A stretch of 63,471 bases of DNA, filler included, from Deltaproteobacteria bacterium (lineage in GTDB: Bacteria > JACQOV01): NCBI GenBank assembly GCA_016202395.1. It is 5 parts of 5 records of this genome, joined end to end, with 100 filler letters (N's around TTAATTAATTAA, not from the genome) between each part and the next. Parts side by side here need not be neighbours in the genome. Positions count along the whole stretch, not along the records: positions 25,931 to 54,987 come from JACQOV010000103.1; 4 more parts are not named here. The stretch is one strand, 5' to 3'. Both the position numbers and the translations under genes were made by a program. The notes beneath the pieces were generated by a model. That model made no database searches and was not told the origin of the DNA. It saw only the letters and a program-made list of their open reading frames with translations. This document shows positions 27,152 through 44,887 of the stretch, one piece after another. Each line of letters opens with the position of its first letter. The stretch's first letter is position 1.

Positions 27152-27177
27152 CCACAGGCTCCTAGCGAGGAACGAAT

Positions 27178-27906
27178 ATGAACTTATTTAATAATTTCTT
27201 GTTTATCGCCCTCCCCTATATCGCGATTGTGACTTTTGTTGTCGGGTCCGTTCAACGGTATAGGGCAACCGGGTTTAAAGTCTCCTCTTTATCCTCCCAG
27301 TTCCTGGAAGGGAAAAAACTTTTCTTCGGCTCCATGCTATTTCACTGGGGGATTCTGGTAGTCTTCATGGGGCATCTCGTCACCTTTCTTTTTCCGACGG
27401 CGACCTTGGCATGGAACAGCAATCCGGTGCGTCTGATTGTGCTCGAGGTGCTGGCCTTCACGTTCGGCCTAAGCCTCTTGATCGGATTGACCGGGCTCTT
27501 CCTTCGGCGGATCTCGAATCCGCGCATTCAAACAGTGACCAGTCGAATGGATCTTGCCACCGAGCTTCTGATTTTGGCGCAGGTTGTCTTGGGATGTTGG
27601 ATCGCGCTAGGATACCGATGGGGAGCTTCCTGGTTCGCATCGGATCTATCCCCCTACCTGTGGTCGATTATGAAACTGAATCCACAGATCGAAGCGGTGA
27701 ACGCCATGCCTCCCGTGATCAAGGCTCACATCGTCGGGGCCTTCATTATCATTGGAGTGATCCCGTTTACCCGACTGATGCATTTTCTGGTGGCCCCCTT
27801 CCACTACATCGGACGGCCTTATCAACTGGTGATGTGGACCTGGGATCGCAAACGGGTCCGTGACTCGATGACCGTTTGGACGGAACATCGCCCGAAGAAT
27901 AATTAA
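27178..27906 (+). CDS. narI: Respiratory nitrate reductase gamma subunit
   Basis: PYIA, SSLSSQFLE, FHWGIL...GH, PFTRLMH heme b ligands. Confidence 0.95.
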   Translation: MNLFNNFLFIALPYIAIVTFVVGSVQRYRATGFKVSSLSSQFLEGKKLFFGSMLFHWGILVVFMGHLVTFLFPTATLAWNSNPVRLIVLEVLAFTFGLSLLIGLTGLFLRRISNPRIQTVTSRMDLATELLILAQVVLGCWIALGYRWGASWFASDLSPYLWSIMKLNPQIEAVNAMPPVIKAHIVGAFIIIGVIPFTRLMHFLVAPFHYIGRPYQLVMWTWDRKRVRDSMTVWTEHRPKNN

Positions 27907-27918
27907 CAATAACTAACA

Positions 27919-28602
27919 ATGAACACTCAAGAGTTAAACCAGATCGATCCTCTGACAAAACAGCCGGAACTGGGGCCGGAACAAATGAGGGATGAGAAGG
28001 AATTGTCCCCCATGGATCCCCCGGAGGCCTACTCTCCCCCTGCCATGAACCCGGTGTCTCCAGAAGAGATGCACCCTTTCCTAAGAAAGTTTAGCAAGGA
28101 GCATGTGCTTTTCATAGAAGAGTTGAACATTTTTGAAGAGGCTCTCCTTTCGATTCAAAAAACGGGGTTCACCAGAGAGTTAGACGGCAAATTGAAGCAT
28201 TTCTTCCATTTCTTTGATTCCAACTTCGTCCCTCACAGCAGGCGGGAGGAGGCGACCCTGTTTCCCTTGCTGAACGAACGACTGATTGCAAATGGGGAGC
28301 ATAGCAAGAGCGCAGTTCCTATGACGGCAATCGATCTTATGCAGGATGAGCACCTCCAGGCCGTACAGTGGGCCGCGGTGATTCTTAATTTTCTAGGGCT
28401 CGCCTTTCGTCTTCCGGACGAAAAATCGAGGTTGATCGTGCTGGATGCCGCGCTCGAACAGGGGAAAAACCTGGTTGAGCTCTTGCGCCTTCATATTTTT
28501 CGCGAGGACAACATCGTTTTTCCATCGGCTCATCGGCTGATCTCCGAGACCGAATTCGACTCAATGAGGATGTTTCCGTATGGAACAGAACGTAACCGGT
28601 AA
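27919..28602 (+). CDS. Hemerythrin-like (HHE) domain protein
   Basis: KEH, PHSRREEATLFP, DEH, LHIFREDNIVFP. Confidence 0.85.
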   Translation: MNTQELNQIDPLTKQPELGPEQMRDEKELSPMDPPEAYSPPAMNPVSPEEMHPFLRKFSKEHVLFIEELNIFEEALLSIQKTGFTRELDGKLKHFFHFFDSNFVPHSRREEATLFPLLNERLIANGEHSKSAVPMTAIDLMQDEHLQAVQWAAVILNFLGLAFRLPDEKSRLIVLDAALEQGKNLVELLRLHIFREDNIVFPSAHRLISETEFDSMRMFPYGTERNR

Positions 28603-30079
28603 ATCCCACCAGATTCTTTTCTTCAACACGCTCGCCTTCACCGTCTGCTTTGCGGTGTGGATGCTCAATGGCGTTTTGGTCACCTTTCTTGTAGAAAACC
28701 AGCTCTACAAATGGTCCATGGTGGAAATTGCCTGGCTCATGGCAATTCCACCCTTAAGCGGCTCCATCTTTCGTCTTCATACAGGGATATGGACTGATAA
28801 ATACGGCGGCAAGGTAACATTCAGCGCTCTGCTTTTTTTCTGTGCCCTTCCGATGTACCTGCTTAGTTATGCCGATAGTTTTCTTGCGTTCGCCTTTTGC
28901 AGTTTTGGTTTCGGGCTGGCGGGGCAAGGATTCTCCATAGGCATTGCCTATACCTCCGTCTGGTACCCCAAATCATGGCAGGGAAGAGCGCTGGGGATCT
29001 TCGGGGTGGGCAATGCCGGCGCAGCCGTCACCACAATGCTGGCTCCCTCTTTGCTGAAACATTTAACCGACAACGGAGCCGATCTAGAAGGATGGCGCTA
29101 CCTGCCCCAAATCTACGCAGTAGCGTTAGTTCTGATGGGGATTCTTTTTCTTCTCTTCACGGTTAATAAAAAATCAAAAGCGGCCGCAGGAAAAACATTC
29201 GTTCAGATGCTCGCCCCGCTGAAGGAAGTGCGGGTATGGCGCTTTGGCTTGTATTATTATCTGGTCTTCGGATGTTTTGTCGCGCTGGCTCAATGGCTGG
29301 TCCCTTATTTCCTGAATATGTATGCCGTCTCATTAATCACTGCCGGCATGTTCGCATCCATATTCAGTTTGCCGGCGGGGCTCCTGCGAGCGCTGGGCGG
29401 ATGGCTGTCGGATAAGCTCGGGGCCAGAACCGTGATGTACTGGGTGCTCGGTTTATCCGTCGTTTTCTGTCTGATGCTCGTCGTCCCGAAAATGGAAATT
29501 GATTCTCCGGGCAAGGGGATCATGGCAAAAAGGGCAGGCACGGCAACGGTTGTCTCCGATAGTTTGATAAAAATAGATGACATGAGTTACCCCCTGGTTG
29601 GAAAACCGGCGGAGGCCGCTTCAGAGGACCGGTCATTCTCTGTTTTCCCAAGTAAAAAAATCTGGCAGGTGCCGACGGTAAAGGAAGGGGACAAGGTGGC
29701 AAGGAAACAACTCATAGCCCAAGGAACGACTCATATCTACTTTCAGGCGAATATCTGGATCGCAGCCGCTCTGGTTTTTATCATCGGCGCTTTGTGGGGA
29801 ATCGGCAAGGCAGCCGTGTACAGACACATCCCGGATTATTTCCCAAACGACGTGGGGGCTGTGGGCGGCATGGTGGGATTGCTGGGAGGGCTCGGCGGAT
29901 TCGTTTCTCCTATCATTTTTGGTTATCTATTGAAATGGACTGGCTTGTGGACGAGCATGTGGATATTTCTCTTCTTCATCTCCGCAATTTGTCTGTGGTG
30001 GATGCATGTTACCATCACAAAGATGAGAGACAAAGCGGCCCCGCAAACAAAAGGAAAATTCGAATCGCAAAACGCCTAA
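28580..30079 (+). CDS. narK: NarK-family nitrate/nitrite transporter (first copy)
   Basis: QGRALGIFGVGNAG, LRALGGWLSDKLG, GGMVGLLGGLGGF. Confidence 0.9.
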   Translation: MEQNVTGKSHQILFFNTLAFTVCFAVWMLNGVLVTFLVENQLYKWSMVEIAWLMAIPPLSGSIFRLHTGIWTDKYGGKVTFSALLFFCALPMYLLSYADSFLAFAFCSFGFGLAGQGFSIGIAYTSVWYPKSWQGRALGIFGVGNAGAAVTTMLAPSLLKHLTDNGADLEGWRYLPQIYAVALVLMGILFLLFTVNKKSKAAAGKTFVQMLAPLKEVRVWRFGLYYYLVFGCFVALAQWLVPYFLNMYAVSLITAGMFASIFSLPAGLLRALGGWLSDKLGARTVMYWVLGLSVVFCLMLVVPKMEIDSPGKGIMAKRAGTATVVSDSLIKIDDMSYPLVGKPAEAASEDRSFSVFPSKKIWQVPTVKEGDKVARKQLIAQGTTHIYFQANIWIAAALVFIIGALWGIGKAAVYRHIPDYFPNDVGAVGGMVGLLGGLGGFVSPIIFGYLLKWTGLWTSMWIFLFFISAICLWWMHVTITKMRDKAAPQTKGKFESQNA

Positions 30080-30102
30080 AAAATCTTGGATGAGAGGCAA
30101 TC

Positions 30103-31437
30103 ATGTCAACGTGGCTGAAAGTTTGGGAACCGGAAAACCCGGAGTTCTGGAAAAAGACCGGAAGCCGAATCGCCTGGAGCACCCTAACCCTCACTACCGT
30201 TAGCCTCATTCTCTCGTTTGCCACTTGGTTCGTGATGAGCGTGTTGGTGGTCCGCTTGCCGGCGGTTGGCTTTAAGTTCGACACGATGCAACTGTTCTGG
30301 CTCGCCGCGATGCCTGGGCTGGCCGGTGGCACTCTGCGGGTCATTCACAGTTTTTTGATCCCCATCTTTGGAACCCGTCTGGTGATCGGGGTCGCCACTC
30401 TGCTCAAGCTCATTCCGTGCATCGGGCTAGGCTTGGCGGTGCTCAACCCCCAGACCCCCTTTTGGATGTTCATGCTGCTGGCGCTCTTGGCCGGCATGGG
30501 AGGGGGCGATTTCTCCTCGTACATGCCAAGCACTAGCCTTTTTTTCCCCAAGCGTTTGCAGGGAGCGGCATTGGGCATTCAGGCGGGAGTCGGAAATTTC
30601 GGCGTGAGCTTGGCGCAGTTCGTGAGTCCCTGGATCATCGGCTTTGCCCTCTTTGGGACGATCGCTGGAGGCTCCCAGGTCTTCAAGAAGGGTGAGGTCA
30701 TCAAAGACATCTGGTTGCAGAATGCGGTTTTCTGGTACGTGCCTCTGCTGCTTGTTCTCGGCATCGCGTGCCTTATCTGGCTTCGGAGCATCCCAGTCAA
30801 AGCGTCGTTCCGCGAGCAACTCGATATCTTCAAAAGCAAACACACCTGGTTTTGTACCATCACCTATGTCATGACCTTCGGATCGTTCTCGGGGTTTGCG
30901 GCGGCCTTCCCTCTCATGATCAAGACGATCTACGGAATCTTTCCAGACGCCCCCGACCCGTTGAAGTACGCCTTTCTTGGGCCGCTCATCGGCTCCGCTA
31001 CCCGAGTGAGCTTTGGGTTCGTCTCGGACAAGACCGGAGGGGCCATCCTCACTCACATCGCTGGCTTGGCGATGATCGGTCTGTGTGGAGCGATGGTGTT
31101 CCTAGGGCTATTGACCCCGACCTCGATCGAGTCGTTCCCCCTCTTCGTCGGTTGCATGCTGGGGATATTCTTCTTCGCGGGCATCGGCAACGCCTCGACC
31201 TTCCGGCAGTATCCGATCATCTTCTCGCACTCGCCGCGTCAGGGCGCGCAGGTGTTGGGCTGGACGGGCGCAGTTGCGGCATACGGGCCATTCGTCTTCT
31301 CGACGCTGATAGGGAGCTCCATTACGAAGACTGGATCGGCCATTCCGTTCTTTATCGGAGCGGCAATCTTCTACCTCATCGCGGTGGCAATCAATTGGTG
31401 GTTTTACACTCGCAAGGGCTGTGAAAAACCTTGTTGA
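30103..31437 (+). CDS. narK: NarK-family nitrate/nitrite transporter (NarK2-like)
   Basis: W.PENPEFW, FFPKRLQGAALGIQAGVGNFG, TFGSFSGF, GIGNASTFRQ. Confidence 0.92.
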   Translation: MSTWLKVWEPENPEFWKKTGSRIAWSTLTLTTVSLILSFATWFVMSVLVVRLPAVGFKFDTMQLFWLAAMPGLAGGTLRVIHSFLIPIFGTRLVIGVATLLKLIPCIGLGLAVLNPQTPFWMFMLLALLAGMGGGDFSSYMPSTSLFFPKRLQGAALGIQAGVGNFGVSLAQFVSPWIIGFALFGTIAGGSQVFKKGEVIKDIWLQNAVFWYVPLLLVLGIACLIWLRSIPVKASFREQLDIFKSKHTWFCTITYVMTFGSFSGFAAAFPLMIKTIYGIFPDAPDPLKYAFLGPLIGSATRVSFGFVSDKTGGAILTHIAGLAMIGLCGAMVFLGLLTPTSIESFPLFVGCMLGIFFFAGIGNASTFRQYPIIFSHSPRQGAQVLGWTGAVAAYGPFVFSTLIGSSITKTGSAIPFFIGAAIFYLIAVAINWWFYTRKGCEKPC

Positions 31438-31488
31438 ATGGGACCAGAAAACGCGTTGTTTTTTGGATCCCTTTGGAGGTCAAAAAAA

Positions 31489-32763
31489 ATGAGTAACGAA
31501 AACAGCAAATTTTATCCAGGGCTCCTATTCCTAAGTTGGCTAGCGATTTTTACATGGAGCCCTTCCCTAACTTTTGGGGAAGACAATTCCTCGTCGCTGA
31601 ATTTCGGAGGAGAGATCCGACTGCGATTGGAAACACTCGCAGAGTTTGATGCCTTCACTCCCACTCGGAATGACAAGGCCAATGAGACATTCGCTCTCAT
31701 GCGAGTCCGAGCCTATTTGGATGCCAAACCGATTGAAGGGCTTGGGATTTTTCTCCAACCGCAATTCTCGCGGGAATGGGCTCAAGAGCAATCCACGGTT
31801 GCTAACACGAATAATGTCGATGATCTAGATCTCCATCAAGGCTATGTGGATCTAAAGGGGATTGGAAGCCCCTCGCTCTCGCTTCGGTTGGGACGTCAAG
31901 AACTCGCTTACGGAGATGAACGATTGATTGGGACCTTCGGTTGGTCCAATGTGGGGCGATCTTTTGACGCGGCGAAGGCTCGATGGAATTGGGATCATGC
32001 CTGGCTGGATGGTTTTCTAAGTTGGATCCAAAGCGCTCCCGATAACCAATTTTTAAGCGGTCTTTATGGCCATTGGGACAAGGATGAGAAAACAGATTAC
32101 GAGGCCTATCTTCTCTCTCTCAACGACAAAAATAGTGGCGTTGGAGGGGGGGATCTCAATCTTTACACGATCGGTGGACACCTCGAAAGAAAGTTCGGCC
32201 CATGGGATTACGATTCTGAAGTAGCCCTTCAACTGGGGGAGTCAGGGACAAAAGACGTTTTTGCCTATGCAGCCCATCTCGACGGAGGATACACGATCGA
32301 TCGCGAATGGCAGCCTCGTTTGGGGTTAGAGTACAACGTCGCCTCCGGAGATGACTCTCCCAACTCCGGCAATGTGGGAACGTTTAATAATCTTTCTCCT
32401 ACGAACCACGACAAATATGGTTACATGGATCTGGTCGGCTGGCGCAACATCCACAACGGTCGCGCCTCGATTCAACTAAAACCGACCCCTTCTGTAACCA
32501 CCTCGCTCGATTACCACATCTTCTTCCTTATGGAGCCAGCCGACGGCCTCTACCAAGCCAGTGGCGCGCAACTCCGCGCGGGATCGGCTGACGCTTCTCG
32601 CTACACGGGACAAGAGATCGACACCCTCCTCAAATACAAGTGGAACAAGTGGGCCCATTGTTTGTTCGGCTATTCCTTTTTTAAGGCGGGAGATTTTCTA
32701 GAAGACACCGGTGATGCCAAAGACGCTCACTTTCTGTACGCCCAAATCACCGCGAGTTATTGA
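31489..32763 (+). CDS. Alginate-export-family outer-membrane beta-barrel
   Basis: GGEIRLRLE, DLHQGY, RLGRQELAYGDERLIG..GW.N.GRSFD, PTNHDKYGYMD; start uncertain (31438 or 31489). Confidence 0.85.
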   Translation: MSNENSKFYPGLLFLSWLAIFTWSPSLTFGEDNSSSLNFGGEIRLRLETLAEFDAFTPTRNDKANETFALMRVRAYLDAKPIEGLGIFLQPQFSREWAQEQSTVANTNNVDDLDLHQGYVDLKGIGSPSLSLRLGRQELAYGDERLIGTFGWSNVGRSFDAAKARWNWDHAWLDGFLSWIQSAPDNQFLSGLYGHWDKDEKTDYEAYLLSLNDKNSGVGGGDLNLYTIGGHLERKFGPWDYDSEVALQLGESGTKDVFAYAAHLDGGYTIDREWQPRLGLEYNVASGDDSPNSGNVGTFNNLSPTNHDKYGYMDLVGWRNIHNGRASIQLKPTPSVTTSLDYHIFFLMEPADGLYQASGAQLRAGSADASRYTGQEIDTLLKYKWNKWAHCLFGYSFFKAGDFLEDTGDAKDAHFLYAQITASY

Positions 32764-33191
32764 TCCGTTGAAAGGACAGGCAACCCAAAGTCTCGCGCGC
32801 AAAAGGCCTGATCTCGATCCAGTGTAACAAAACCGGCTAATCCTTGGTTTTCATGGAACCATCTCGCGGTTCTTAAATGAACGAGATCGCTCGATTTAGG
32901 AATTCGCACCGGGGGGAAAATCCCCGTCAAGCAGATATCTAAAGACAATTCCTTGAGCAAAAAATGTTCGCCATCCTTCTCCAAACAATCCATAGCTCTC
33001 CTATACTCTTCATCGGAAAGAATCTTTTCACGACTGAAACGGACCAGATTCCGTTCCGCTTCTATCACCAATAATACGCTGGAACATAGAGATTTTTTAT
33101 TAAGAAAATCGTAAAAGGCGTTTCTTCGGGGATCCATGAGCAAAACGGCAAGGTAAGCGGAGGTATCCAAATAAACTAAATCGGTCGTCAC
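32757..33191 (-). CDS. PIN-domain toxin
   Basis: VYLDTSAYL, DLVHLRTA, FVTLD..Q; GTG start overlaps the antitoxin stop. Confidence 0.85.
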   Translation of the reverse strand: MTTDLVYLDTSAYLAVLLMDPRRNAFYDFLNKKSLCSSVLLVIEAERNLVRFSREKILSDEEYRRAMDCLEKDGEHFLLKELSLDICLTGIFPPVRIPKSSDLVHLRTARWFHENQGLAGFVTLDRDQAFCARDFGLPVLSTDQ

Positions 33192-33430
33192 GGGTCCTCT
33201 CGATCCTCTAGAAGATATCGAAGCCAATCTCCCTGGATCGGCTTTTTCAAGGCGGGCTTAAAATGACCGCGTCCCACGAGACGTCCCCGATGAAGTCCAA
33301 CATCACGGCCAGGAACCAAAGCCACATAAGGTCGATTGTATTTTGTAACATGGACGACGTTCCCTTTGGCCGCCTCCTCTGCCCAATGGGAGAGATTCTC
33401 TTTAAGGTCTTTTAAGGGCACACTTGGCAT
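33188..33430 (-). CDS. Phd/YefM family antitoxin
   Basis: LKDLKENLSHW...GNVVHVTKYNRPYVAL. Confidence 0.85.
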   Translation of the reverse strand: MPSVPLKDLKENLSHWAEEAAKGNVVHVTKYNRPYVALVPGRDVGLHRGRLVGRGHFKPALKKPIQGDWLRYLLEDREDP

Positions 33431-33676: not shown

Positions 33677-36451
33677 TCACTGCGTCTTCACATACCTGTA
33701 AATCGCATTGATTTCCTCATCCGATAAATTCTGGTCCGGCATCGGTATATGATATTCATTAAAAAGGGCCACGGCCTCTTTGTCTCCTTTCTTCACCATG
33801 GCCTGGGATGATTTGATCCATTGGATGAGCCATTCCTTAGAACGCTTGGAAGTCACACCTTTCAGATCAGGACCCACCAGTTTTCCCTTGCCGATGGTAT
33901 GACAAGCCGTGCAGTTTTTCTGGAAAAGAGCGGCACCGTCGATTGCCGACTCTGTGCCTAAGGTCGGCTTTTTGCTCTCAACTGTTTCTTTGACAAAGGT
34001 TGTTTTGGGCGGCTCTTTAATTTCACCGACAAAAGCAGCAAGGGCTAACACCGCCGTTTGCACGGCCTTGTCATGTTCTTCAGGTGTCAAAGCACGTCCA
34101 TCGGCAACATGGAGACCTTTACGCAGGTTCGTACGGATAGATTCCCAAGTAGGGGTATTGTAGTATTGGTGGCACGCCACACAAGAACCCTCACGTTCCA
34201 CTTTATTCCGCTCCTGCTCGTTCAGAGGACGGTCTGCCAAAAGGGGAAGATTTTGCGTCTGTCGGCCGCTACGGGTTACCAGCTGATCCCAGGCATAGGG
34301 AAAATCCTTAATTCCCGGGATCTGTGGTTTGGCTTTTTTGGACGACAGGATATCGGCATTTATGTCAAAACCCATATTCCCAAAATGCGGTTTATCCCCG
34401 TCAATTATGGAAGAAGAACGGCTCACCCCGACACCGTATCCAATGGCCTTGGGATCCGTATGACAGCTTTCACAGGTACGGGCCACGGCGGTATTGGCAT
34501 GGGGCTGAAGCGGCGCCAGAGTGGGGGCATTATAACCATCGGAGGTCTTGTAGACTTTGTTGACCTCTTTCAGGACGCCATTTTTGTCGACAAAACTCCA
34601 CACGACCTGGCAACCGGGAATGGCCGGGGCCACCTTGCCTTTGTAATTAACGGCAAGAAGCGGATTTTCCCAGCGGATATAACTGACATTCTCGGTATGG
34701 ATATCCCCCGGGGCCGTTGTTTTGACCTGTTTTCCTAAAGCATTGTGTTTTTCGGCAGAAAGCGGCCAGTCAATCCCCTCCTTGCGGGCGTCGTATTTGA
34801 TGTGACAACCGTAGCATTGCGGCGCCCAAGTGGAATGGCAGGCATAACACTCGAGTTTATCCATATGCTGAGAAACCACTTCCATGGCGACATGCCCCTG
34901 TTCCGTTTTCCAGCTACTCTCCAGGGCCTTGTTTTTCAGGAGCGGGATCTCACGCTTCTTCCCATCGGAGACATTGGTTAGATAGGCCTTATTTTCTTCT
35001 TTTGTCCATCGCGTGCGTGCGTTTCCTCTTGTGGTGATGAGATATTCGTTTTCTCCCGACCGATAGGTTCCCCTTTCCGTTTTTGTCTCTACAGGCGTTC
35101 CGAAGCCCACCGGCAGTTCCCAAGGGTATTTCTGGGGCGTTCCATGACAATCCGCACAACCGACTTCCACCTGGTAGAAAGTGACGGGGTAGATATTCCC
35201 GTCTCCGTGCACGTCAATGGATGAGTGACAATCGGCACACTGCATGCCGCGTTCGCCGTGGACGTCTTCGCGAACATGGTTGTATTCTTTTGTATATAAA
35301 GGAACCTGGACCTCCCCGTGATCGTCAAACGGCGGCGTTTTACCGGAACCGACATACTGGTGTTCAACAATCCCGGCAAATGTCGTGCCGATGCGTTTCC
35401 CCCGCGTATGACAATGGTTGCACTGTTGGGCCGGTATTTGCTTTGTAATCTCGTGTTTCATCGGATGGGGTGCAACGTCTTTTGGAATAGTGGGGTCATT
35501 GCTTTCTGAAAAGGCATCATTGGTATAAAGTATGTGACAGGCCGCACAGCCGCCAGCGCGATGATCCCCCCGTTTATCGCGCCCCTCGCCCCAGACGTGG
35601 CAACGGCCGCATTGCTTGCGGTGCATGTCGGCAAAACCGGCTTTGGCGGGGTCGCCCCATAGTTTTGTCCCTTCTTCAAGATTGGGGATTCGTTCCGTAT
35701 GATTCATCACCTCGATGAGCTTCTCTTTTAACGCCTTGGCAATCCATTCCTTGTATTCCGGACTCCCTGCGGAAGGGACGGGACCATCCGGATCATCCAT
35801 GTCAAAATTGGCGTATTTCCATTTCCCTTTCGGAATGACGCCATTGGACATCAGGGTTTTGTTGGCTTTGCCCGTTTCCAGAGCCATGAGGGCGCGTTCC
35901 ATGCGATAGACGTGGTTTCTTCCGGAGGCGCCGCTGGGGTCTGTGGCATAACTGACGACCTCCATCAGACTACCGCCTGCAGGATGTTGCTTTTGGGGCT
36001 TCCCCATCAGGCTTTTAATGGCGTTTTTATCACTATGACATTTGGCGCATCCCTTTCCCTCATTCAAGACCCACATGCTGGAGGGATTAGGGTATATATC
36101 TTTGTGCGCTTCAAGTTTGGTGGTTGCATCGGGGATTCCTTCGTGGCAAACGGCGCATTCAAACCCTGATTTTCCCCCCGCCTGTGACAGCAGAAAAGGC
36201 TGCATTTTTTCATTGATCACCTCAATGCCCTGGTGACAGGAAAGACACCCTTTTTCTTTGGCAAGGGAAGGGCTGACAGTCTCATTTTTTCCGGAGGTTG
36301 TTGGTGATGTTTTGGATTCAGAAGCAACTATGGAAGTCTGTTGCGTTTGGGGTTGGATCGACCTGGTTTTATTTTTTTCATCGGAACAACCGCTCACCGC
36401 GACGATCAAATAACATAAGAAGGCGACAATTTCAGCCAATTTTTTGGTCAT
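33677..36451 (-). CDS. Multiheme cytochrome c lipoprotein (13 CxxCH; the last in a C-terminal class I cytochrome c domain)
   Basis: Lipobox VSGC; CLSCH, CAVCH, CAKCH, CGRCH, CAACH, CNHCH, CADCH x2, CYACH, CYGCH, CESCH, CVACH, then GAALFQKNCTACH...VGPDLKGV...PMP. Confidence 0.93.
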   Translation of the reverse strand: MTKKLAEIVAFLCYLIVAVSGCSDEKNKTRSIQPQTQQTSIVASESKTSPTTSGKNETVSPSLAKEKGCLSCHQGIEVINEKMQPFLLSQAGGKSGFECAVCHEGIPDATTKLEAHKDIYPNPSSMWVLNEGKGCAKCHSDKNAIKSLMGKPQKQHPAGGSLMEVVSYATDPSGASGRNHVYRMERALMALETGKANKTLMSNGVIPKGKWKYANFDMDDPDGPVPSAGSPEYKEWIAKALKEKLIEVMNHTERIPNLEEGTKLWGDPAKAGFADMHRKQCGRCHVWGEGRDKRGDHRAGGCAACHILYTNDAFSESNDPTIPKDVAPHPMKHEITKQIPAQQCNHCHTRGKRIGTTFAGIVEHQYVGSGKTPPFDDHGEVQVPLYTKEYNHVREDVHGERGMQCADCHSSIDVHGDGNIYPVTFYQVEVGCADCHGTPQKYPWELPVGFGTPVETKTERGTYRSGENEYLITTRGNARTRWTKEENKAYLTNVSDGKKREIPLLKNKALESSWKTEQGHVAMEVVSQHMDKLECYACHSTWAPQCYGCHIKYDARKEGIDWPLSAEKHNALGKQVKTTAPGDIHTENVSYIRWENPLLAVNYKGKVAPAIPGCQVVWSFVDKNGVLKEVNKVYKTSDGYNAPTLAPLQPHANTAVARTCESCHTDPKAIGYGVGVSRSSSIIDGDKPHFGNMGFDINADILSSKKAKPQIPGIKDFPYAWDQLVTRSGRQTQNLPLLADRPLNEQERNKVEREGSCVACHQYYNTPTWESIRTNLRKGLHVADGRALTPEEHDKAVQTAVLALAAFVGEIKEPPKTTFVKETVESKKPTLGTESAIDGAALFQKNCTACHTIGKGKLVGPDLKGVTSKRSKEWLIQWIKSSQAMVKKGDKEAVALFNEYHIPMPDQNLSDEEINAIYRYVKTQ

Positions 36452-36463
36452 ACCGCCATTTCC

Positions 36464-37672
36464 TCAAAACTTGACATTTAAATCAACCCGCGACCGTACC
36501 TGTTGATTCCCTCCGGGGGCGCTGTCCAATTCGTCAATTAAACCCCAAGCATGAAGATCGACATTTTTGTAAACGGCCAAGGCAATCCCCAAGAGATGCC
36601 CTTTGAAATTTGTTTGTCGTAAAAAATCATCCTGGGAAAAGGGTGAAAAAACGGCATCCTGCTGGACCCGTTGGTATTGATAATAGGCCCGCCAATCCCA
36701 CTGTTTCTTCAACTGCCCATAAGCGATCCCAAAGGCATAACCATCGTTTCGTGCAGCGTTTGCGCCAAAATTGTGGAGGTATTGGGCTTGAAAGGCAAGG
36801 GGCATGGGGAGACCCGTGTAGGCTGCATCCATGAAAGAGTCTAAAATTCTAAAACCAGAAACAAAACTGTCAGCAGTGCCGTCCCCATCGTTATCCATAG
36901 CTGTATTTCCACCATTGTCGTTGCGGACAATCGCATCGGCACCGGGGGCTCCAGCATTGACGTTGGAATAATAATAAAAACCTGTAGCGGCCGTTAGCTC
37001 CAATTTGCTGGCAAACTGAAATGTGGTTGCCACTTGCGAACCATTCATCCATGCTTCACTCCCTGGATCCTGCTCAAGGAGAATATAACTTCCATTGACA
37101 ACATTTAACTTTTTTACGATTCCAAGATCCCTAAAGGTAAAACCAACGGCACCCCCCTCCGGTTGCACATCCTGGTCCCAGACGAGTTCAGGATAAACGA
37201 CAGGTGTAGCAAAGGGATGACCAAATTTCCCCAACCACAACGTCATTTCTTCAAAAAAAGAGGGAATCCATCTTACGAAAGCCCGATCGAGGGAAAAGTT
37301 TGGTCTATCGAAAGCGCCGGTAAAGGTGGCATGGGGGGAGTTGGGATCGGCAAGGGGCCCCGTGGCAAAACGCGCGCCGACTGTTACGTCGTCATTGACG
37401 GGAAAATCAAGACCCAAACGGAAACGAATTCGCCCACGGGTTCTGGTATCGGTTGTCGCATCGCGATTAAAATCGTTCTCAAGACGCCCGCGAAAGTCGC
37501 CTGAGATGCTAAGTTTACCTTTGATGTCTTCTACCGTTTTTAAAATCGATGAATCCTTTTTTGTTTCACCGTCCGGCTTTTGATCCGATTCTTTTTCTGC
37601 ATGGACGAATCCCGGATGGAGAAAAAAACAGGCCGTAAAAAACAAAATAAACGCGGCTTTGCCAATTTTCAT
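36464..37672 (-). CDS. Putative outer-membrane porin
   Basis: Signal peptide (VHA-E), SGDFRGRLE, RGRIRFRLG, LVWDQDVQPEG, terminal VDLNVKF. Confidence 0.85.
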   Translation of the reverse strand: MKIGKAAFILFFTACFFLHPGFVHAEKESDQKPDGETKKDSSILKTVEDIKGKLSISGDFRGRLENDFNRDATTDTRTRGRIRFRLGLDFPVNDDVTVGARFATGPLADPNSPHATFTGAFDRPNFSLDRAFVRWIPSFFEEMTLWLGKFGHPFATPVVYPELVWDQDVQPEGGAVGFTFRDLGIVKKLNVVNGSYILLEQDPGSEAWMNGSQVATTFQFASKLELTAATGFYYYSNVNAGAPGADAIVRNDNGGNTAMDNDGDGTADSFVSGFRILDSFMDAAYTGLPMPLAFQAQYLHNFGANAARNDGYAFGIAYGQLKKQWDWRAYYQYQRVQQDAVFSPFSQDDFLRQTNFKGHLLGIALAVYKNVDLHAWGLIDELDSAPGGNQQVRSRVDLNVKF

Positions 37673-37704: not shown

Positions 37705-37720
37705 TGCAAACCAGATGCCA
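37705..37720 (-). promoter_or_regulatory. Sigma54 promoter of the porin-cytochrome operon
   Basis: TGGCATCTGGTTTGCA, 32 bp upstream of the porin ATG (GGGAGG RBS). Confidence 0.85.
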
Positions 37721-37860
37721 ATGTTTGGGAAAAACGATGCGGATAGTTTCTTTTATGAAATCATCCAGTTGGAAGTCCATGCGGAAACGGCGGAAGATTC
37801 CTGACGAATCATGGTGGCAGAAAAACTGCCGGCATGGAACGCTGACCGGCAGGACTTCGA

Positions 37861-39240
37861 TCACGTTATCTCTTCGGGGTCGGAGCCGATTCCATACTTT
37901 TTCAGTTTTTCACGGAGGGTAATACGGGCGATTCCAAGAATGCGGGCCGCCTCCGATTTATTGCCGCCCGTTTTTTCGAGCACCGTCAGAATATGTCGTT
38001 TCTCGACTTCTTCGAGAGACAATTCATCCCGCCGGGCGGAGAAGTCCCCGGCAGGATCTTGTGGATTTGCCGCCCGTAAATCGACGGGAAGGTGGGACGG
38101 TAAAATGACGCCGTTCGCGGCCAGAATGCAGGCCCGTTCAATAACATTCCTGAGTTCCCGAATATTTCCAGGCCACGGATAACCCGCAAGAAGTTCTTTC
38201 GCCCCTTCATCGATCCGCAGTTCCCTGCGAAACTGGGCACCAAAATGCCGCAAAAATTTTTCCGTCAACCAGGGGATATCTTCCCTTCGGTCCCTAAGCG
38301 GCGGCACACCTATCTGAAAGACCTTCAGACGATAATAGAGATCTTCACGGAATTGGCCATCCCGAACCAGGGCGGTGAGATCCCTGTTTGTGGAAGCCAT
38401 GATACGGACATTCACATCAATGTCTTTGACTCCGCCAATCCGTTTGAACGTCTGATATTCCAGAACACGCAAAATCTTTGCCTGCAGGGGAAGCGGCATT
38501 TCAGCGATTTCATCCAAAAGAAGAGAGCCGCCATCCGCAAGTTCCAAGAGACCCTTTCTCGTTTCTTTTGAATCGGTAAAGGCCCCCTTCTCAGCGCCAA
38601 AAAATTCCGTTTCCAGGAGATGGGCGGGAATAGCGCTACAGTTAATTTTCAATAAAGGATTTTTTGCGCGATCACTGACGAAATGGATAGCATCTACAAC
38701 CAATTCTTTTCCTGTTCCGCTTTCCCCTGTAATGAGAACCGTTGTTTTTGATACAGTGCCAACGTCTCTGATATTTGACTCCAACTCTTTTGCTTTGGAA
38801 CTGATGCCAAGTCCCTGATCCGGTTGAAAGAAGGGTTGCGTCAAACGCCTCAAGCGTTGAATATCATCCTTCATGTGAGTCGCTTCCAAAGCCCTACCCA
38901 CAATCAATTTGAGTTCGTCGAGTTCAAAGGGTTTAATGATATAATCAAAAGCCCCCAGTTTCATGGCCTTAACGGCTGTTTTGGCGTCGGGGTTCGCTGT
39001 CATCATAATAACGGGTGTGAGATTATCCTGACTCCGGATGTCCTGTAAGACTTCAAGACCGCTACGATCCGGAAGCCTGAGATCCATCAGGACAAGATCA
39101 ACTTTTTTTGTCTGGAATAACCGCAAGCCTTCTCCGGCAGAGGCCCCTGCATAGCTTAAAAATCCACTTTTTTGAAACACTTCCGTCAGTGTCTGCTGCA
39201 TGACCCCATCGTCCTCGATAATAAGAATTTTATGATGCAT
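37861..39240 (-). CDS. NtrC-family sigma54-dependent response regulator
   Basis: Receiver domain, GESGTGKE, GAFTD, WPGNIREL, C-terminal Fis HTH. Confidence 0.95.
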   Translation of the reverse strand: MHHKILIIEDDGVMQQTLTEVFQKSGFLSYAGASAGEGLRLFQTKKVDLVLMDLRLPDRSGLEVLQDIRSQDNLTPVIMMTANPDAKTAVKAMKLGAFDYIIKPFELDELKLIVGRALEATHMKDDIQRLRRLTQPFFQPDQGLGISSKAKELESNIRDVGTVSKTTVLITGESGTGKELVVDAIHFVSDRAKNPLLKINCSAIPAHLLETEFFGAEKGAFTDSKETRKGLLELADGGSLLLDEIAEMPLPLQAKILRVLEYQTFKRIGGVKDIDVNVRIMASTNRDLTALVRDGQFREDLYYRLKVFQIGVPPLRDRREDIPWLTEKFLRHFGAQFRRELRIDEGAKELLAGYPWPGNIRELRNVIERACILAANGVILPSHLPVDLRAANPQDPAGDFSARRDELSLEEVEKRHILTVLEKTGGNKSEAARILGIARITLREKLKKYGIGSDPEEIT

Positions 39241-41206
39241 AATCCCTCACCGGAAAAAGAATTTCAAAGGTGGTTCCATGACCCACCTGGCTTTTCGCAT
39301 GAATGTCCGCCCCATGTTCCTTGACGATCTTGTAAGCAATAGCGAGCCCCAAACCCGATCCATCCGCATGTGTTGTAAAAAATGGTTCAAAAATCCTTGA
39401 GATATTCTCCTGCGGAATTCCCACCCCATTGTCAATGACCGCGACTGAGACCTTCGACGAATCACTATCTTGAACTTCGATTTTTAGCGTTAGTACTCCC
39501 CCATCCGGCATGGCGCGCAAGGCGTTGACAATGAGATTCCAGAGTACTTGTTGTATCTGATGAGAATCTCCGAATATCGGAGGAGTTTCCGCAAATTCCC
39601 TGCGAATAGTCACGCTGTGCCATTCGGCCTCTTTACCAACAAGGAAAATAACCTCTTCGGCAATCTTTACAAGATCACAGGGAGACAATTTCCGGTCTCC
39701 CGGTGTTACAAAGGAATGAAACGTTTTTAGAAAATGGCTTAGCCGATCAATTTCAGAGATAATTCGTCGAAAATAAGTTTGTTGTTCCTGCGGCGTTATG
39801 TTTTCATCCATTGCTTGAATCACTGTTTTAATAGCGGCCAAAGGATTGCCAATTTCATGAGCGATTCCCGCAGAAAGTTGCCCCAGGCTTGCCATTTTTT
39901 CCATCTGATAGACTCGTTCCATGGAAGCGGCAAGTTTCTCCTCGGCACGTCGAATTTCCTCTTGAAGTTGACGATTCCATCCCTTCTCTTTTTCGACAAG
40001 TTCTCGAATATGCTGCGCCATTGTATTCATGGCACGAGCCATGTCCTCTATTTCATCTTTTGTTTCCACATCCAAATAGACATTGAAGTTCCCTTTTCCG
40101 ATTTTTTCCATCTCACGGTGGATGGCAAGCAGGGGTATGGTTAACTGGCGGGCAGCCACCCCTCCCAGGAAAAAAAGCACTAGGGCTATGACAAGACCGA
40201 TCAAAAACAGCACGACAACAAATTCACTCAAAGGCTTCAGAATAATTTTCTTTGGATATTGTAATCCAACAACCCAGTATCGACTTTCTTCTTTCTGATA
40301 TTTGACGGGGGTAAAAATGGTGAAGTGATCTTTATTTTCAATGATTCCTGTTTTACCAGTGAACAATGCATCTTTCGAGGTATTTCCCACGACGTTTTGA
40401 CCCGACAACAGGGATAATGATGTCGTTTTGTCATTTTCTCCCATAGAAATCATGGTGCCATTTATGTTGACGAAAAAGGTTCTGACGCCGGGACGGGTTT
40501 CCAGGCTTCGAATCAGGGCCAGGAGGTCGGTTGCATACAGATTCAGGATCACAAGACCCCTCTTTTGTCCTGCTTCATCAACAAAAGGGGTGGCAAACCG
40601 GACAACAAGCTGGTGAGGTACCTCCACGTGACCGAACTCTTCATTGAGGTCGAGGGAAGAGACATAAATTTCACCGGTGGAAATCTTCATGGCTTCATGG
40701 AGATAATAACGTTCTCCCTTGTTTTGCAATTGTTCCAGAGAGGTGATCATCACATCGCCTCCTTTGGAGTCAACGCGCAACCTTTCCCAACCCTCCATAT
40801 CGAGAAAGCGAATCTGATAGATGCCAATACGATACTTGGCAAAGTTTGAAAAAGCCTCAAGAACGGCCGTGCGCAACTCTATGCGCTCGGATTCTCCATG
40901 GGCGGGCATATGGCGCACATAGTTTTTGAGCGTCGGCAAACGGGAGAGGAAGAGGATATCTCCGCGAACATTCGTGAGCGTTTTTTCGAGCTCTTTACTC
41001 CGGTCCTCGACCTCACGGGTAAGTTCACTCATGTAATTGGACTTCAAAGTTTTCGAAGCAAAGTAAACGCCATAAATGCCCCCAATCGTCAGCGGTAAGA
41101 TCGCACTCAAGAAAAAGGCAATCCGGAGTTTTTTGCGGATGCTTAATGATCCAAAAAACCGATTTAGGTTATACCCGGATTTATTCACATCCTCTTGTCG
41201 ACGCAT
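39230..41206 (-). CDS. Sensor histidine kinase (TM-Cache-TM-HAMP-HisKA-HATPase)
   Basis: Cache-type periplasmic region (QIRFLD..G.ERLRV...YVS.LDLN.E), DEIEDMARAMN, AHEIGNPL, DNGVGI, GSGLGL. Confidence 0.95.
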   Translation of the reverse strand: MRRQEDVNKSGYNLNRFFGSLSIRKKLRIAFFLSAILPLTIGGIYGVYFASKTLKSNYMSELTREVEDRSKELEKTLTNVRGDILFLSRLPTLKNYVRHMPAHGESERIELRTAVLEAFSNFAKYRIGIYQIRFLDMEGWERLRVDSKGGDVMITSLEQLQNKGERYYLHEAMKISTGEIYVSSLDLNEEFGHVEVPHQLVVRFATPFVDEAGQKRGLVILNLYATDLLALIRSLETRPGVRTFFVNINGTMISMGENDKTTSLSLLSGQNVVGNTSKDALFTGKTGIIENKDHFTIFTPVKYQKEESRYWVVGLQYPKKIILKPLSEFVVVLFLIGLVIALVLFFLGGVAARQLTIPLLAIHREMEKIGKGNFNVYLDVETKDEIEDMARAMNTMAQHIRELVEKEKGWNRQLQEEIRRAEEKLAASMERVYQMEKMASLGQLSAGIAHEIGNPLAAIKTVIQAMDENITPQEQQTYFRRIISEIDRLSHFLKTFHSFVTPGDRKLSPCDLVKIAEEVIFLVGKEAEWHSVTIRREFAETPPIFGDSHQIQQVLWNLIVNALRAMPDGGVLTLKIEVQDSDSSKVSVAVIDNGVGIPQENISRIFEPFFTTHADGSGLGLAIAYKIVKEHGADIHAKSQVGHGTTFEILFPVRDYAS

Positions 41207-42091: not shown

Positions 42092-43396
42092 TTAAGGCGG
42101 CGAATGGTAAGCGCTGCCGGGCTCGGAGAAATGGGGCAGCTCCTCGATCGGTTTCTCGATAATTTTAGGAGTAATAAAAATGAGAAGCTCACTCTTCTGC
42201 TGTGTCTTGGTATCGCTCTTAAAGAGGTAACCCAAGAGGGGAATCCGCATCAAGCCGGGGATCCCACGCTCCGCTTCGGTCTCTCGAACTCGATACAATC
42301 CCCCAATGATGGTCGTATCCCCATTTTTCAGCATCACCGTCGTTGTGGCGGTGCTATCAATCACGGCAGGGATCCCTTCGACAGCGCGGCTAAAATCGGC
42401 CTCCGATTCGACCGCCTCGATCTCTAATTTAATCAAATCGTTGACCGAGATCTGCGGAGTCACCTGAAGTTCAATCCCGGTTCCGATCTGCTGAAGATTC
42501 GTGGAGCTGTCCCCCGTTTGCCCCACCGTAATAGCAGCGCTGGTCACCACATAGAACTTAACACCACTCCGAATCTTCGCGGAGTGATTGTTTAAAGTCG
42601 CCACCGAGGGACGTGACAGAATTTTGATGTCTCCCTTTTCTTCCGCCGCTGAAAGTTGAAGATCCGCAATAGTGCTGTCCACATTACCAATAATCAAACC
42701 CAACCCCCCCAAGGGAGAACCGGAATTCAACCCCTCCGCGGGCAGATTCACCCCAAGATTTCGCCCCGCATCGGAGGTCCCCACCGCGCTGAGACCGCCC
42801 ACATCGGCATCCCCACCGGAGTGGGTGACCCCCCACTGAATCCCAAAACTGCGAATGAAATCCACCGAGGCATCCACAATCTTGGCCTCAATCAAAACCT
42901 GGCGATCCTCTCGATCGAGGTTCGACACCAACTTTCGAATATTCTCCACCGCCAGCGAGGTGTCACGGACATAAACGGAATTGGTTCTTTCATCCGCAAT
43001 TGTTGTCCCCCTTTCTGTGATGAACGATTGTAGATGAGGGAGAACATCCTTGGCTTTCGCGTACTGAAGGTTGAAGGAGGCGCTCATCAGATCCTCCCCT
43101 AACGCCTCGACCTCTTTTTTGGAAACCACCAGCAACGTCCCTTCCTCCACAACGAACCCAAACCCATGCGTTTTGAGAATGGCGCCCAAGGCCTCCTCCA
43201 GCTTAACCTGTTCAAAGCTTGCCGTCACTTTCCCTTCCACACTCTCTGGCACGACGATATTTTGTCCCCCGAGTTTGGCAAGCATTCGAACGGCAGCGCG
43301 AATATCGGCATCGTGGAACTCCACGCTATAGAGATACTCGGAGGCCAAGGCTCTAGAAACAAAGCAAATAGCTAAAAACCAACTTCTCCACATCAT
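42092..43396 (-). CDS. Secretin (PilQ/MshL-like)
   Basis: QVLIEAKIV, GIELQVTPQI, GIPGLMRIPLLGYLF, ELLIFITPKI. Confidence 0.92.
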   Translation of the reverse strand: MMWRSWFLAICFVSRALASEYLYSVEFHDADIRAAVRMLAKLGGQNIVVPESVEGKVTASFEQVKLEEALGAILKTHGFGFVVEEGTLLVVSKKEVEALGEDLMSASFNLQYAKAKDVLPHLQSFITERGTTIADERTNSVYVRDTSLAVENIRKLVSNLDREDRQVLIEAKIVDASVDFIRSFGIQWGVTHSGGDADVGGLSAVGTSDAGRNLGVNLPAEGLNSGSPLGGLGLIIGNVDSTIADLQLSAAEEKGDIKILSRPSVATLNNHSAKIRSGVKFYVVTSAAITVGQTGDSSTNLQQIGTGIELQVTPQISVNDLIKLEIEAVESEADFSRAVEGIPAVIDSTATTTVMLKNGDTTIIGGLYRVRETEAERGIPGLMRIPLLGYLFKSDTKTQQKSELLIFITPKIIEKPIEELPHFSEPGSAYHSPP

Positions 43397-43776
43397 CGAG
43401 CTTCTCCCGTGAAAGACAAACGGTACAACCCATTCTCATTACGAAGAACCACATGATTTTTTTCTACCTCAACGACCTCGTGGGAACCGATCTTTTCTCC
43501 TTTGCGGACCGCACGGTCGTTGATCAGCGCTGCCCGATCGACATCGCCATAAACAATTCCTGTCAGAACAAGATCGGTCACAGAGAAATCCTCCACCGCC
43601 TCCACAAAAGGATTGTCTTGCCACAAAAGGCCGCCCTCCCTCGATCGAGCCCCTCCTTCAAACCCCTCCAAATCCAGCCCCGAAAAGGCCCCATCGCGCC
43701 TCCCTTCTCCCTGAACCCCGGAGAAGATCAGCAGGATAGGGAAGGCCCACCAGAGTCTCTTTTTATTCCCAACCAT
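43393..43776 (-). CDS. PilP/MshK-like pilus assembly protein
   Basis: NPF, LVLTGIVYG...ALIND.AVRKGEKIG; located before the secretin. Confidence 0.65.
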   Translation of the reverse strand: MVGNKKRLWWAFPILLIFSGVQGEGRRDGAFSGLDLEGFEGGARSREGGLLWQDNPFVEAVEDFSVTDLVLTGIVYGDVDRAALINDRAVRKGEKIGSHEVVEVEKNHVVLRNENGLYRLSFTGEAR

Positions 43777-44341
43777 AAACAATCCCCTCCAGCGTTAATT
43801 TTACACCCGCAGCTCCCTCCTCCTCCAAAGAGAGGATCTCCCAATGAGAAATGAGAAGAGGGGCCGAAAGCCGATCCAATCGCTCCAGGTACCTTCCCAA
43901 AAATGGGAAGGATCCCAAGAGGGAAACCGTAAATTCTTGTGTCGTCACACGCCCCTGGCGAACCGGATCGGGAAATTCGACGCCGGTCACTTGAAGCCCT
44001 TTCGTTAGGATGGGATTCGTCATCTCTTGCATCACCCATCCGCTCGGATTGCGAGCGATTTGATGAGCCCATTCTTCATACGAGGCTAAAACGGCGCTCC
44101 CCGCATGAGGCTCCACCTTTTGAGACTGCGCTCCGAACTGCCTCTGCGCCTGAACAAAGGCCTCCTTCTCTTTGAAAGCCTCCTCCAAATGCGCCTGAAC
44201 CTCTGAGAGAGCCTCACGACTTGGAAACCAACAAGACTTTAGGAACACCAACACGAAAGCGAGCAAGGCCGCTAAAAAAATCAACCTCTCCCGTGAGTTC
44301 GGAACCTCTCGCCAACGGACCGAGGTGATCTGCAACGCCAT
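43763..44341 (-). CDS. PilO/MshJ-like alignment protein
   Basis: NSRERLI plus TM plus coiled coil; G.F..LGRYLERL. Confidence 0.7.
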   Translation of the reverse strand: MALQITSVRWREVPNSRERLIFLAALLAFVLVFLKSCWFPSREALSEVQAHLEEAFKEKEAFVQAQRQFGAQSQKVEPHAGSAVLASYEEWAHQIARNPSGWVMQEMTNPILTKGLQVTGVEFPDPVRQGRVTTQEFTVSLLGSFPFLGRYLERLDRLSAPLLISHWEILSLEEEGAAGVKLTLEGIVYGWE

Positions 44342-44887
44342 CTAAAATCCCTCGCAGCGAATCTTAAAACGAAACCCCCTTCGCGTCCCCTCTGGAACCT
44401 CTTGGGAAGACAACAATTGAACCTGTAAACAGACGGGGTCTTGGGCTAAAGTTTGTATCCAATAAGCGACCGCCCTCTGATCTCGCGCCTCCCCCTCAAG
44501 ATCAATGCCCGCAGGGTCTGCAACGATAGAGGTTAAACGTATTTGAGAGGGAACATAGCTCGAGATCTGATAAAGGATTTTAGACCAGGTGATCCGATTC
44601 TGCAACTCCTCCCAAGGGATTCCTTCGTAAAAAGAGATCTTCTTTGGACTCTCCAAAGAAGGGGAAGTGGCGCGAAGCTGGGATAGAGAGACCGTCGTTG
44701 CGTTTAGCTTTTTTTGGAGCGAGTCTAGGCGAACCTTCTGGACCGCGCCATAGCTCGCCATGAACATCAAAACAAGGGTGGCTATCGAAACGAGACTCAG
44801 TCGATTCCACCGAAATCTTCCAAAGATCTTTCGAGGATCCCAAAAATCCACCCTCCATCTCCGTTTTTCAATAAAATTGATGTGCAT
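44342..44887 (-). CDS. PilN-like protein
   Basis: MHINF (INLL-like), TM, coiled coil, P.QIRLTSI, LEGEA. Confidence 0.75.
   Translation of the reverse strand: MHINFIEKRRWRVDFWDPRKIFGRFRWNRLSLVSIATLVLMFMASYGAVQKVRLDSLQKKLNATTVSLSQLRATSPSLESPKKISFYEGIPWEELQNRITWSKILYQISSYVPSQIRLTSIVADPAGIDLEGEARDQRAVAYWIQTLAQDPVCLQVQLLSSQEVPEGTRRGFRFKIRCEGF

Follow-up and report, generated by a model that had tools for sequence, protein, structure and literature searches.

The 63,471-nucleotide stretch of Deltaproteobacteria bacterium DNA analyzed here (assembly GCA_016202395.1; the window) carries, on its minus strand, an operon under sigma-54 and sensor kinase control that pairs a porin of the general type, probably favoring anions (P0002, 402 amino acids), with a 12-heme lipoprotein of the ExtM superfamily that has its own class I cytochrome c domain (P0001, 924 amino acids). 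We tentatively interpret this operon as an inducible, possibly substrate-induced, periplasmic oxidoreductase module wired to the cytochrome c chain, a reading that we favor while holding it somewhat short of probable; the arginine-lined pore is best read as an addition made in the lineage of the window. The window consists of five contigs placed end to end (joins at 8818-8917, 25831-25930, 54988-55087 and 58732-58831, each made up of two runs of 44 N with 12 bases between them), and the operon lies on the contig at 25931-54987 (29,057 bases).

The layout given in an initial annotation of this region, namely two genes with a 12-bp gap, a 924-residue lipoprotein with 12 CxxCH motifs and a 13th heme, a linker, and a class I domain with the Met of an IPMP motif, is all present in the sequence. 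The open reading frame of P0001 (33677-36451, minus strand, as are all features of the protein) starts with a signal peptide and the lipobox VSGC, which includes Cys22 (36386..36451; MTKKLAEIVAFLCYLIVAVSGC); 42 of 80 aligned relatives have a Cys at the lipobox column. A Ser/Thr/Gln-rich tether follows (residues 23-62; 36266..36385), identified as disordered from its composition and from predicted local distance difference test (pLDDT) values below 50 at residues 20-37 and 44-51. Heme-free insertions interrupt the 12-heme core (residues 63-805; 34037..36265), which also contains a beta-sheet domain (strands 462-501 and 543-647) and is connected by a Lys/Glu/Thr-rich linker (residues 806-836; 33944..34036; five Glu, five Lys and five Thr in 31 residues, with pLDDT below 50 at residues 813-867) to the monoheme domain, a class I cytochrome c (residues 837-924; 33680..33943). 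Twelve of the 13 CxxCH motifs fall within residues 69-761 and the 13th, CTACH, is at 847, with its probable Met ligand in HIPMP. P0001 contains no CxxCK, and the sole match to a longer-spacer motif arises where the neighboring motifs at 535 and 546 overlap. The low heme density remarked on earlier is borne out: residues 63-805 average one heme per approximately 62 residues. No other stop-to-stop frame of at least 60 amino acids anywhere in the 63-kb window bears a CxxCH motif.

An AlphaFold2 model of P0001 (pLDDT 86.6, predicted template modeling score 0.81) gave no Foldseek match to the PDB at E≤0.001; the top rows, which reflect short beta-hairpin likeness to choline-binding and CROP repeats at E of about 1, were set aside as carrying no meaning. 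When the core was compared with the PDB by sequence and by profile, matches were at the level of heme motifs only, and thus by sequence, profile and fold searches of the PDB no structure is known for any member of this family.

As judged from sequence, the core of P0001 belongs to a widespread, unnamed subfamily of approximately 780 amino acids that is related to Geobacter ExtM and falls below the ExtM cutoff. Its best NCBIfam match is ExtM (NF040943, an equivalog model), at 227.7 bits against a cutoff of 800, and the match spans residues 274-682 of P0001 and positions 141-519 of the 599 in the profile; bona fide ExtM sequences, found among the distant relatives (P0223 and P0263), score 826 and 881 bits. 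The CHTRGKRIG stretch, which the initial annotation had found reminiscent of Ext-type cytochromes, lies inside the ExtM-matching part, and all 12 core heme motifs align one to one with those of P0223 and P0263 in an alignment of 237 sequences, so that the suspected likeness holds. P0001 shares with ExtM (GSU2935 of the Geobacter sulfurreducens extHIJKLMNOPQS cluster) the same 12 collinear CxxCH motifs, a lone cysteine and the positions of His116, His333, His398, His529 and His651 (P0001 numbering), but it is approximately 180 residues longer and differs in its lipobox, tether and C-terminal class I domain; relative to true ExtM, the extra segments are residues 141-178, 217-258 and 774-800, plus the C-terminal addition.

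A length-limited search with P0001 returned 893 relatives among 7303 candidates, and a search of 1.84 billion cluster representatives returned 5414, both at E≤0.001; of the latter, 188 reached E≤1e-30. Named sources of these relatives include Ca. Magnetobacterium (79% identity), Brocadiaceae, Scalinduaceae, Nitrospinota, Planctomycetota, Bacteroidota, Acidobacteriota and Gemmatimonadetes, and most of the relatives are annotated as "hypothetical protein", the remainder having generic cytochrome c names. The full-length fusion matched no characterized family. The available text of the ext cluster report (PMC5877670) lists ExtM (12 hemes, 68 kDa) without assigning it a role, and our search of the literature on ExtM/GSU2935 and dodecahemes found no functional study of ExtM. 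ExtKL, which adjoins ExtM in its operon, has been reported as the polysulfide reductase MccSep, which has a selenocysteine and a His/Cys heme, and in the available part of that report gsu2935 appears as a polarity control only (bioRxiv 10.1101/2025.11.18.688581). None of the ExtM-type operon partners (ExtKL, ExtN, ExtOPQ, Rieske protein or cytochrome b) is found among the neighbors of P0001 in the window.

The main lead toward catalysis is Cys614, a conserved cysteine whose presence appears to track that of heme 10. Its codon (34610..34612, minus strand) specifies the sole cysteine outside the heme motifs that is conserved in the alignment of relatives. The position is Cys in 173 of the 237 aligned relatives, including both true ExtM sequences, and among sequences with a residue at this column, 170 of the 197 with heme motif 10 have the cysteine, and 29 of the 32 without the motif lack it (170 with both, 3 with the cysteine only, 27 with the motif only and 29 with neither). 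Across 47 close relatives, only nine non-motif histidines are conserved at 85% or more (116, 329, 333, 346, 398, 415, 529, 651 and 793), so that at least three of the 12 hemes would not be bis-His and would need Met83, Met523, Met189, Cys614 or nothing in the sixth position. Met83 and Met523 are conserved in the alignment; Met189 alternates with His (167 vs 51 of 237 relatives) and His415 alternates with Met (188 vs 40 of 237 relatives), and swaps between His and Met are typical of axial ligands. Counting the nine histidines, Met83, Met189, Met523 and Cys614, there are 13 candidate sixth ligands for 12 hemes, and thus an open heme is not required. We infer the ligand assignment of the core hemes from this pattern of conservation.

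The C-terminal domain of P0001 has the features expected of a class I cytochrome c, with a CxxCH near the start of the domain and a Met approximately 55 residues later that is predicted to act as a ligand. Residues 838-923 match Pfam Cytochrom_C (PF00034, 2.2e-11; 45.3 bits vs a cutoff of 21.3), and the same domain matches Cytochrome_CBB3 (PF13442; 32.6 bits vs 27). In sequence searches of the PDB it aligned with a Sco1/SenC-cytochrome c protein (2l4d_A, 1.4e-14), with the Met of HIPMP opposite the Met of 2l4d_A, and with ActA of alternative complex III (6btm_A, 2.5e-12). Its identity to the N-terminal class I repeats of two ActA-like proteins is 54% (P0310) and 53% (P0311). Relatives of residues 806-924 are found in ActA-like (P0310, P0311), NarI-like (P0312, P0313) and multicopper oxidase-like (P0314) fusions, and the search with these residues returned no second protein in which an ExtM-type core carries a C-terminal class I domain. 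A single class I domain at the C terminus of an ExtM-type core is peculiar to P0001 among the proteins found.

Class I partners of this core take two other forms among its relatives, an N-terminal diheme fusion and a separate gene. N-terminal extensions of more than 150 amino acids are present in 29 of 258 relatives (core match at E≤1e-20), 28 of which carry one or two extra CxxCH motifs, and 17 of these 28 are among the 119 close relatives; C-terminal extensions of more than 60 amino acids occur in 16 of the 258, and none is a monoheme class I domain. At a related locus from Planctomycetia (L004), a class I cytochrome is encoded by a separate 134-amino-acid gene directly before the 12-heme gene. 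This separate cytochrome matches the N-terminal domains of the long-form relatives weakly, and the class I domain of P0001 matches none of them. By these comparisons, class I cytochromes have thus joined this core on two or more independent occasions, with the C-terminal form so far unique to P0001. As a recurring partner of the family, the class I cytochrome fits the tethered electron shuttle that had been proposed for this protein.

The porin gene (36464..37672, minus strand) lies upstream of the cytochrome gene, from which it is separated by 12 bases, and encodes a protein with a signal peptide ending VHA|E, a short N-terminal helix, a 16-strand barrel and a C-terminal Phe (...NVKF). P0002 matches Pfam Porin_5 at 122.9 bits (cutoff 22) and no NCBIfam family at E≤0.1; a search of the Porin_5 literature found nothing relevant. 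An AlphaFold2 model built from an alignment of 37 relatives (pLDDT 86.8) places the helix at residues 41-53 and has 16 strands. The top Foldseek match is OmpM1 of Veillonella parvula (8bym_A, 4.9e-16, TM 0.75 by target), followed by OmpF and OmpC (approximately 1e-10) and other 16-strand porins. Family match, strand number, signal peptide and C-terminal aromatic residue are all those of a general diffusion porin, and the barrel, as suspected earlier, is far smaller than MtrB.

Eight residues of P0002 (R63, R77, R79, R81, R83, R85, D129 and D168) are invariant in 37 sequences, and R61 and R101 are conserved at 90% or more. Five of the conserved arginines alternate along one strand, so that they would share a common face, and the long loop between strands 5 and 6 has the conserved D166 and D168. 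P0002 has in common with OmpM1 and OmpF/OmpC the 16 strands, the helix before the barrel and an acidic loop opposite an arginine cluster, although it has no SLH domain. In the model, these features amount to a general-porin eyelet in which one wall of the lumen bears an arginine stripe of unusually strong positive charge. Because the arginine stripe faces an acidic loop, a preference for anions is suggested, and P0002 probably favors small anions. The stripe comprises eight conserved arginines, as does the arginine ladder of OprP described in section 3.1 of PMC5877670, but P0002 is otherwise unlike OprP, being a member of Porin_5 rather than Porin_O_P, and OprP is not among the 46 Foldseek matches listed (ranks 1-50). 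The ext cluster and the window operon both contain a small porin; ExtI is described in the available text of PMC5877670 as a porin of approximately 380 amino acids, Porin O/P-like, the loss of which lowers selenite and tellurite reduction. The comparison with P0002, which lacks an NCBIfam match, is to this description of ExtI only.

Upstream of the porin lies a regulatory system, also on the minus strand. A sensor histidine kinase of 658 amino acids (39230..41206) has Pfam matches to a periplasmic dCache/HK_sensor domain, HAMP, HisKA and HATPase_c; searches of the PDB matched its kinase core only, with no match to the sensor domain. A sigma-54-dependent response regulator of 459 amino acids (37861..39240) contains a receiver (Response_reg), an AAA+ sigma-54 activator domain (Sigma54_activat, 4e-61) and a Fis-type helix-turn-helix (HTH_8). 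A sigma-54 promoter consensus (TGGCATctggtTTGCA; 37705..37720, minus strand) is located 32 nt upstream of the porin ATG, and an inverted repeat with perfect 7-nt arms, CTGCCGG-N13-CCGGCAG (37826..37852), lies approximately 105-130 nt upstream of the promoter. The repeat is a weak candidate for an activator-binding site, as it is short and could be due to chance. Consensus matches to the sigma-54 promoter number three in the window against 0.13 expected, and none of 100 shuffles reached three; the two other matches, at 5581-5596 (minus strand) and 58619-58634 (plus strand), are both exact.

To place the operon among its relatives, we compared it with seven related loci from one scan of genome contigs, a small sample in which the gene upstream of the 12-heme gene is visible in six. 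In L004, which belongs to another phylum, a homologous kinase (31% identity over 651 amino acids, sensor domain included) is encoded upstream of the 12-heme gene, together with a sigma-54 activator that is 45% identical to the regulator of the window. A sigma-54 motif at 7496-7511 of L004 lies 30 nt upstream of a gene pair that ends in the 12-heme gene, and the order of the locus is kinase, activator, sigma-54 motif, class I cytochrome gene (in the place of the porin) and 12-heme gene. An Anaerolineaceae locus (L007) has a homologous sensor domain upstream (32% over query residues 11-420), here joined to a HisKA_3/LuxR-type system. The dCache sensor kinase therefore recurs in the window, L004 and L007, and the sigma-54 promoter in the window and L004.

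The porin, in contrast to these regulators, had no relative in any of the seven loci, whether by tblastn or by a profile hidden Markov model (HMM) at E≤10 run over open reading frames and six frames. The initial annotation had treated barrel and cytochrome as a porin-cytochrome pair and had itself named a lack of genetic linkage elsewhere as grounds for abandoning that view; in this small sample the pair is not conserved as a unit. The available text of work on cable bacteria (PMC11976967) places ExtM homologues away from porins. Of the related loci, L004 and L005 encode 12-heme proteins that carry plain signal peptides, while the L007 homologue ends in a membrane helix at its C terminus, indicating that the family works without a dedicated pore. 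Since anchoring varies in this way, and since a lipobox-like motif occurs in 39 of the 119 close relatives of P0001, the work of the 12-heme protein is probably done in the periplasm.

Respiratory genes recur beside the 12-heme gene. On the plus strand of the window, 25931-32763 carries a narH fragment, a narJ-like gene, narI, a hemerythrin/RIC-like gene, two NarK-family genes and an AlgE-type (Alginate_exp) outer-membrane porin, a cluster that converges on the cytochrome operon. The closest named homologue, in Ca. Magnetobacterium cryptolimnobacter (L001), lies within a nos cluster, between nosZ (820 bits vs 625) with the N-terminal half of nosR on one side and a fusion of the C-terminal half of nosR to nosD on the other; nosF-like and nosY-like ABC transporter genes follow the fusion, and the maturation genes for CcdA and ResA adjoin the 12-heme gene. 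In L007, the genes for cox subunits I, III and IV are just upstream of the homologue. The recurrent neighbors are thus nar (window), nosZ (L001) and cox (L007). In five of the seven loci, the 12-heme gene has no adjacent redox partner gene. As a separate observation, the region 347-14883 of L001 holds a seemingly split nosR, in which the FMN-binding N-terminal half spans 2336-3457 and the C-terminal half, in its fusion with nosD, spans 10700-13033; the approximately 7 kb between the halves hold a SoxA-like monoheme gene, an ECF sigma/anti-sigma pair, the CcdA and ResA-like genes and the 12-heme cytochrome gene.

In the mechanism that we propose for the operon, the dCache kinase would sense a periplasmic solute and phosphorylate the sigma-54 activator, which would then fire the promoter in front of the porin gene, and the porin and cytochrome would, given the 12-base gap, be co-transcribed. 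The 16-strand diffusion pore would raise the entry of small anions into the periplasm, where the lipid-anchored cytochrome, on its tether of approximately 40 residues, would oxidize or reduce the solute, most likely at or near heme 10 next to Cys614. The tethered class I domain would then exchange electrons with the respiratory chain at the level of cytochrome c. Catalysis itself, the direction of electron flow and the role of Cys614 are presumed in this scheme, and for the substrate a sulfur or selenium oxyanion, a polysulfide or an N-oxide would be our guess. TsdB-TsdA thiosulfate dehydrogenase fusions offer an analogue to the fused P0001. The likeness to TsdA-type sulfur enzymes with His/Cys hemes and to MccSep (ExtKL) is one of analogy, in that P0001 has a conserved extra Cys and a class I cytochrome is fused or paired with the core; P0001 has no SoxA or TsdA domain match in Pfam, and MccSep is an operon neighbor of ExtM according to the available part of bioRxiv 10.1101/2025.11.18.688581. 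The small anion-type porin ExtI, which occurs together with ExtM in the Geobacter ext cluster and is tied, in the portion of PMC5877670 available, to selenite and tellurite reduction, offers a precedent.

Several observations weigh against an enzymatic module of this kind. Cys614 and heme 10 co-occur in sequences that are themselves related, so that shared ancestry may explain the association, and the conserved candidate ligands, 13 in number, could suffice for six-coordination of all 12 hemes. P0001 has no variant heme motif (CxxCK or CX15CH), and its model has no fold match to NrfA, HAO, OTR or MccA, the Foldseek search of the PDB having been empty at E≤0.001; a profile match to NrfA (6v0a_A, 6.9e-6) covers short heme-motif stretches only. 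Geobacter ExtM and the L001 homologue both adjoin other catalytic enzymes (MccSep and NosZ, respectively), for which a relay is a better fit than an enzyme. Finally, the porin, having no relative in the seven loci, is perhaps only loosely tied to the function of the cytochrome, and its anion selectivity is deduced from conserved arginines.

The foremost alternative is possible but, in our view, doubtful: the 12-heme protein would be a noncatalytic electron hub that relays or stores electrons between a quinol-oxidizing membrane complex and cytochrome c-dependent terminal enzymes such as N2O reductase and oxidases, with the class I domain as an adaptor and the porin co-regulated yet functionally separate. 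The ExtM operon does include a Rieske/cytochrome b pair along with a distinct catalytic enzyme (available portions of PMC5877670 and bioRxiv 10.1101/2025.11.18.688581), and the closest named homologue of P0001 is placed inside a nosZ-nosR-nosDFY cluster, with another next to cox genes. A hub would also be consistent with conserved ligands sufficient for 12 six-coordinate hemes, with the lack of any similarity to catalytic multiheme enzymes in fold and profile searches, and with the absence of porin relatives from the seven loci. However, the 12-heme gene stands without a partner enzyme in five of these loci; a dedicated periplasmic sensor, typical of substrate-induced enzymes, recurs in three phyla; a wire would need neither so many residues per heme (approximately 62) nor the large heme-free insertions and the beta-sheet domain; and the lone cysteine is conserved across the superfamily.

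A broader form of the oxidoreductase proposal is speculative, and we consider it unlikely as it stands. The ExtM-like 12-heme proteins of approximately 780 amino acids would constitute an unrecognized class of periplasmic multiheme oxidoreductases, in which a Cys-ligated or Cys-assisted heme 10 supports turnover of an inorganic anion (a sulfur or selenium species, or an N-oxide) coupled to the cytochrome c pool, and the window, with sensor, anion pore and tethered cytochrome c, would represent the fullest self-contained version.

Much less probable is a lipoprotein reductase or oxidase displayed at the cell surface, with its anchor in the outer leaflet and its 40-residue tether threaded through the 16-strand porin, as for RcsF with OmpA/C/F. 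A lipobox with Ser at +2, the long disordered tether and a porin gene immediately upstream would suit such an arrangement, and the low heme density and beta domains of P0001 resemble the surface cytochromes MtrC and OmcA, in design only. Nevertheless, no MtrC/OmcA fold match was found, only 39 of 119 close relatives have a lipobox-like motif and other modes of anchoring exist, and the porin is not conserved across the seven loci. Prediction of a complex between the porin and residues 55-650 of the cytochrome (score 0.00, mark 0.32) is evidence neither way.

Least probable of all, and largely refuted, is a true conduit like MtrAB, MtoAB/PioAB or Geobacter Pcc, in which the cytochrome would sit in or on the barrel and move electrons, in either direction, between the cell and minerals across the outer membrane: the two genes do lie 12 bases apart in one operon, as barrel and multiheme cytochrome genes adjoin in those systems, and "porin-dodecaheme" complexes, likened here by description only, have been proposed for another member of the Nitrospirota, Ca. 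Manganitrophus, in the available text of bioRxiv 10.1101/2021.11.15.468770, but the MtrAB-type barrel has approximately 26 strands where P0002 has 16 and resembles general porins, a barrel that in the model is too small to enclose a multiheme cytochrome, and, in addition, HMM searches of Pfam and NCBIfam found no match to MtrA or MtrB/PioB and gave only a match to MtrC-MtrF_II-IV below threshold (25.1 bits vs 30), P0001 is sparse in hemes and the single cytochrome of the whole window, linkage to a porin is absent from the seven loci, the homologues (including those of Anaerolineae) are soluble in the periplasm or anchored by a C-terminal helix, and the fused class I domain is a module of the periplasmic type.

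The nar operon and SecA are truncated where they meet contig joins (NarH at 25931-26434 is a C-terminal piece, and SecA at 7111-8817 lacks its N-terminal third), and we rejected both truncations as biology because they are assembly artifacts. A 90-nt repeat with an internal palindrome is present at 25524-25613 and 25741-25830, at a contig edge (98% identical copies, 217 nt apart), and is probably the cause of the assembly break there. On the contig of the operon, a 156-amino-acid open reading frame (32757-33227, minus strand) lies 450 bases downstream of the cytochrome gene and has a weak PIN-domain match (22.1 bits vs a cutoff of 23.6); it is probably outside the operon. The same contig carries a type IV pilus/type II secretion-like cluster (42092-54760, minus strand) encoding a secretin, PilN, PilM, TPR and AAA proteins, pseudopilins, a GspF-like protein and an MshE-type ATPase, and an Rfam scan of it found no RNA family. 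Elsewhere, an AbiEii/AbiEi type IV toxin-antitoxin pair is located at the start of a contig (9066-10743, minus strand), a HicB-family antitoxin gene adjoins a DUF1802 gene (62212-63138, minus strand), and a 1315-amino-acid open reading frame (18684-22631, minus strand) belongs to no Pfam family, its sole match being a short and weak one to the VolA/Pla-1 lipase model.

The operon serves as a warning that adjacent barrel and multiheme cytochrome genes do not automatically make a porin-cytochrome conduit. More broadly, the core of P0001 represents a large family found in lineages with central roles in the cycling of nitrogen, sulfur and metals, and its recurring sensor and class I cytochrome partners mark it as a regulated input to, or output from, a high-potential respiratory chain. 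Identification of the substrate would supply a missing piece of the electron-transfer maps for anammox bacteria, Nitrospinota and magnetotactic Nitrospirota.

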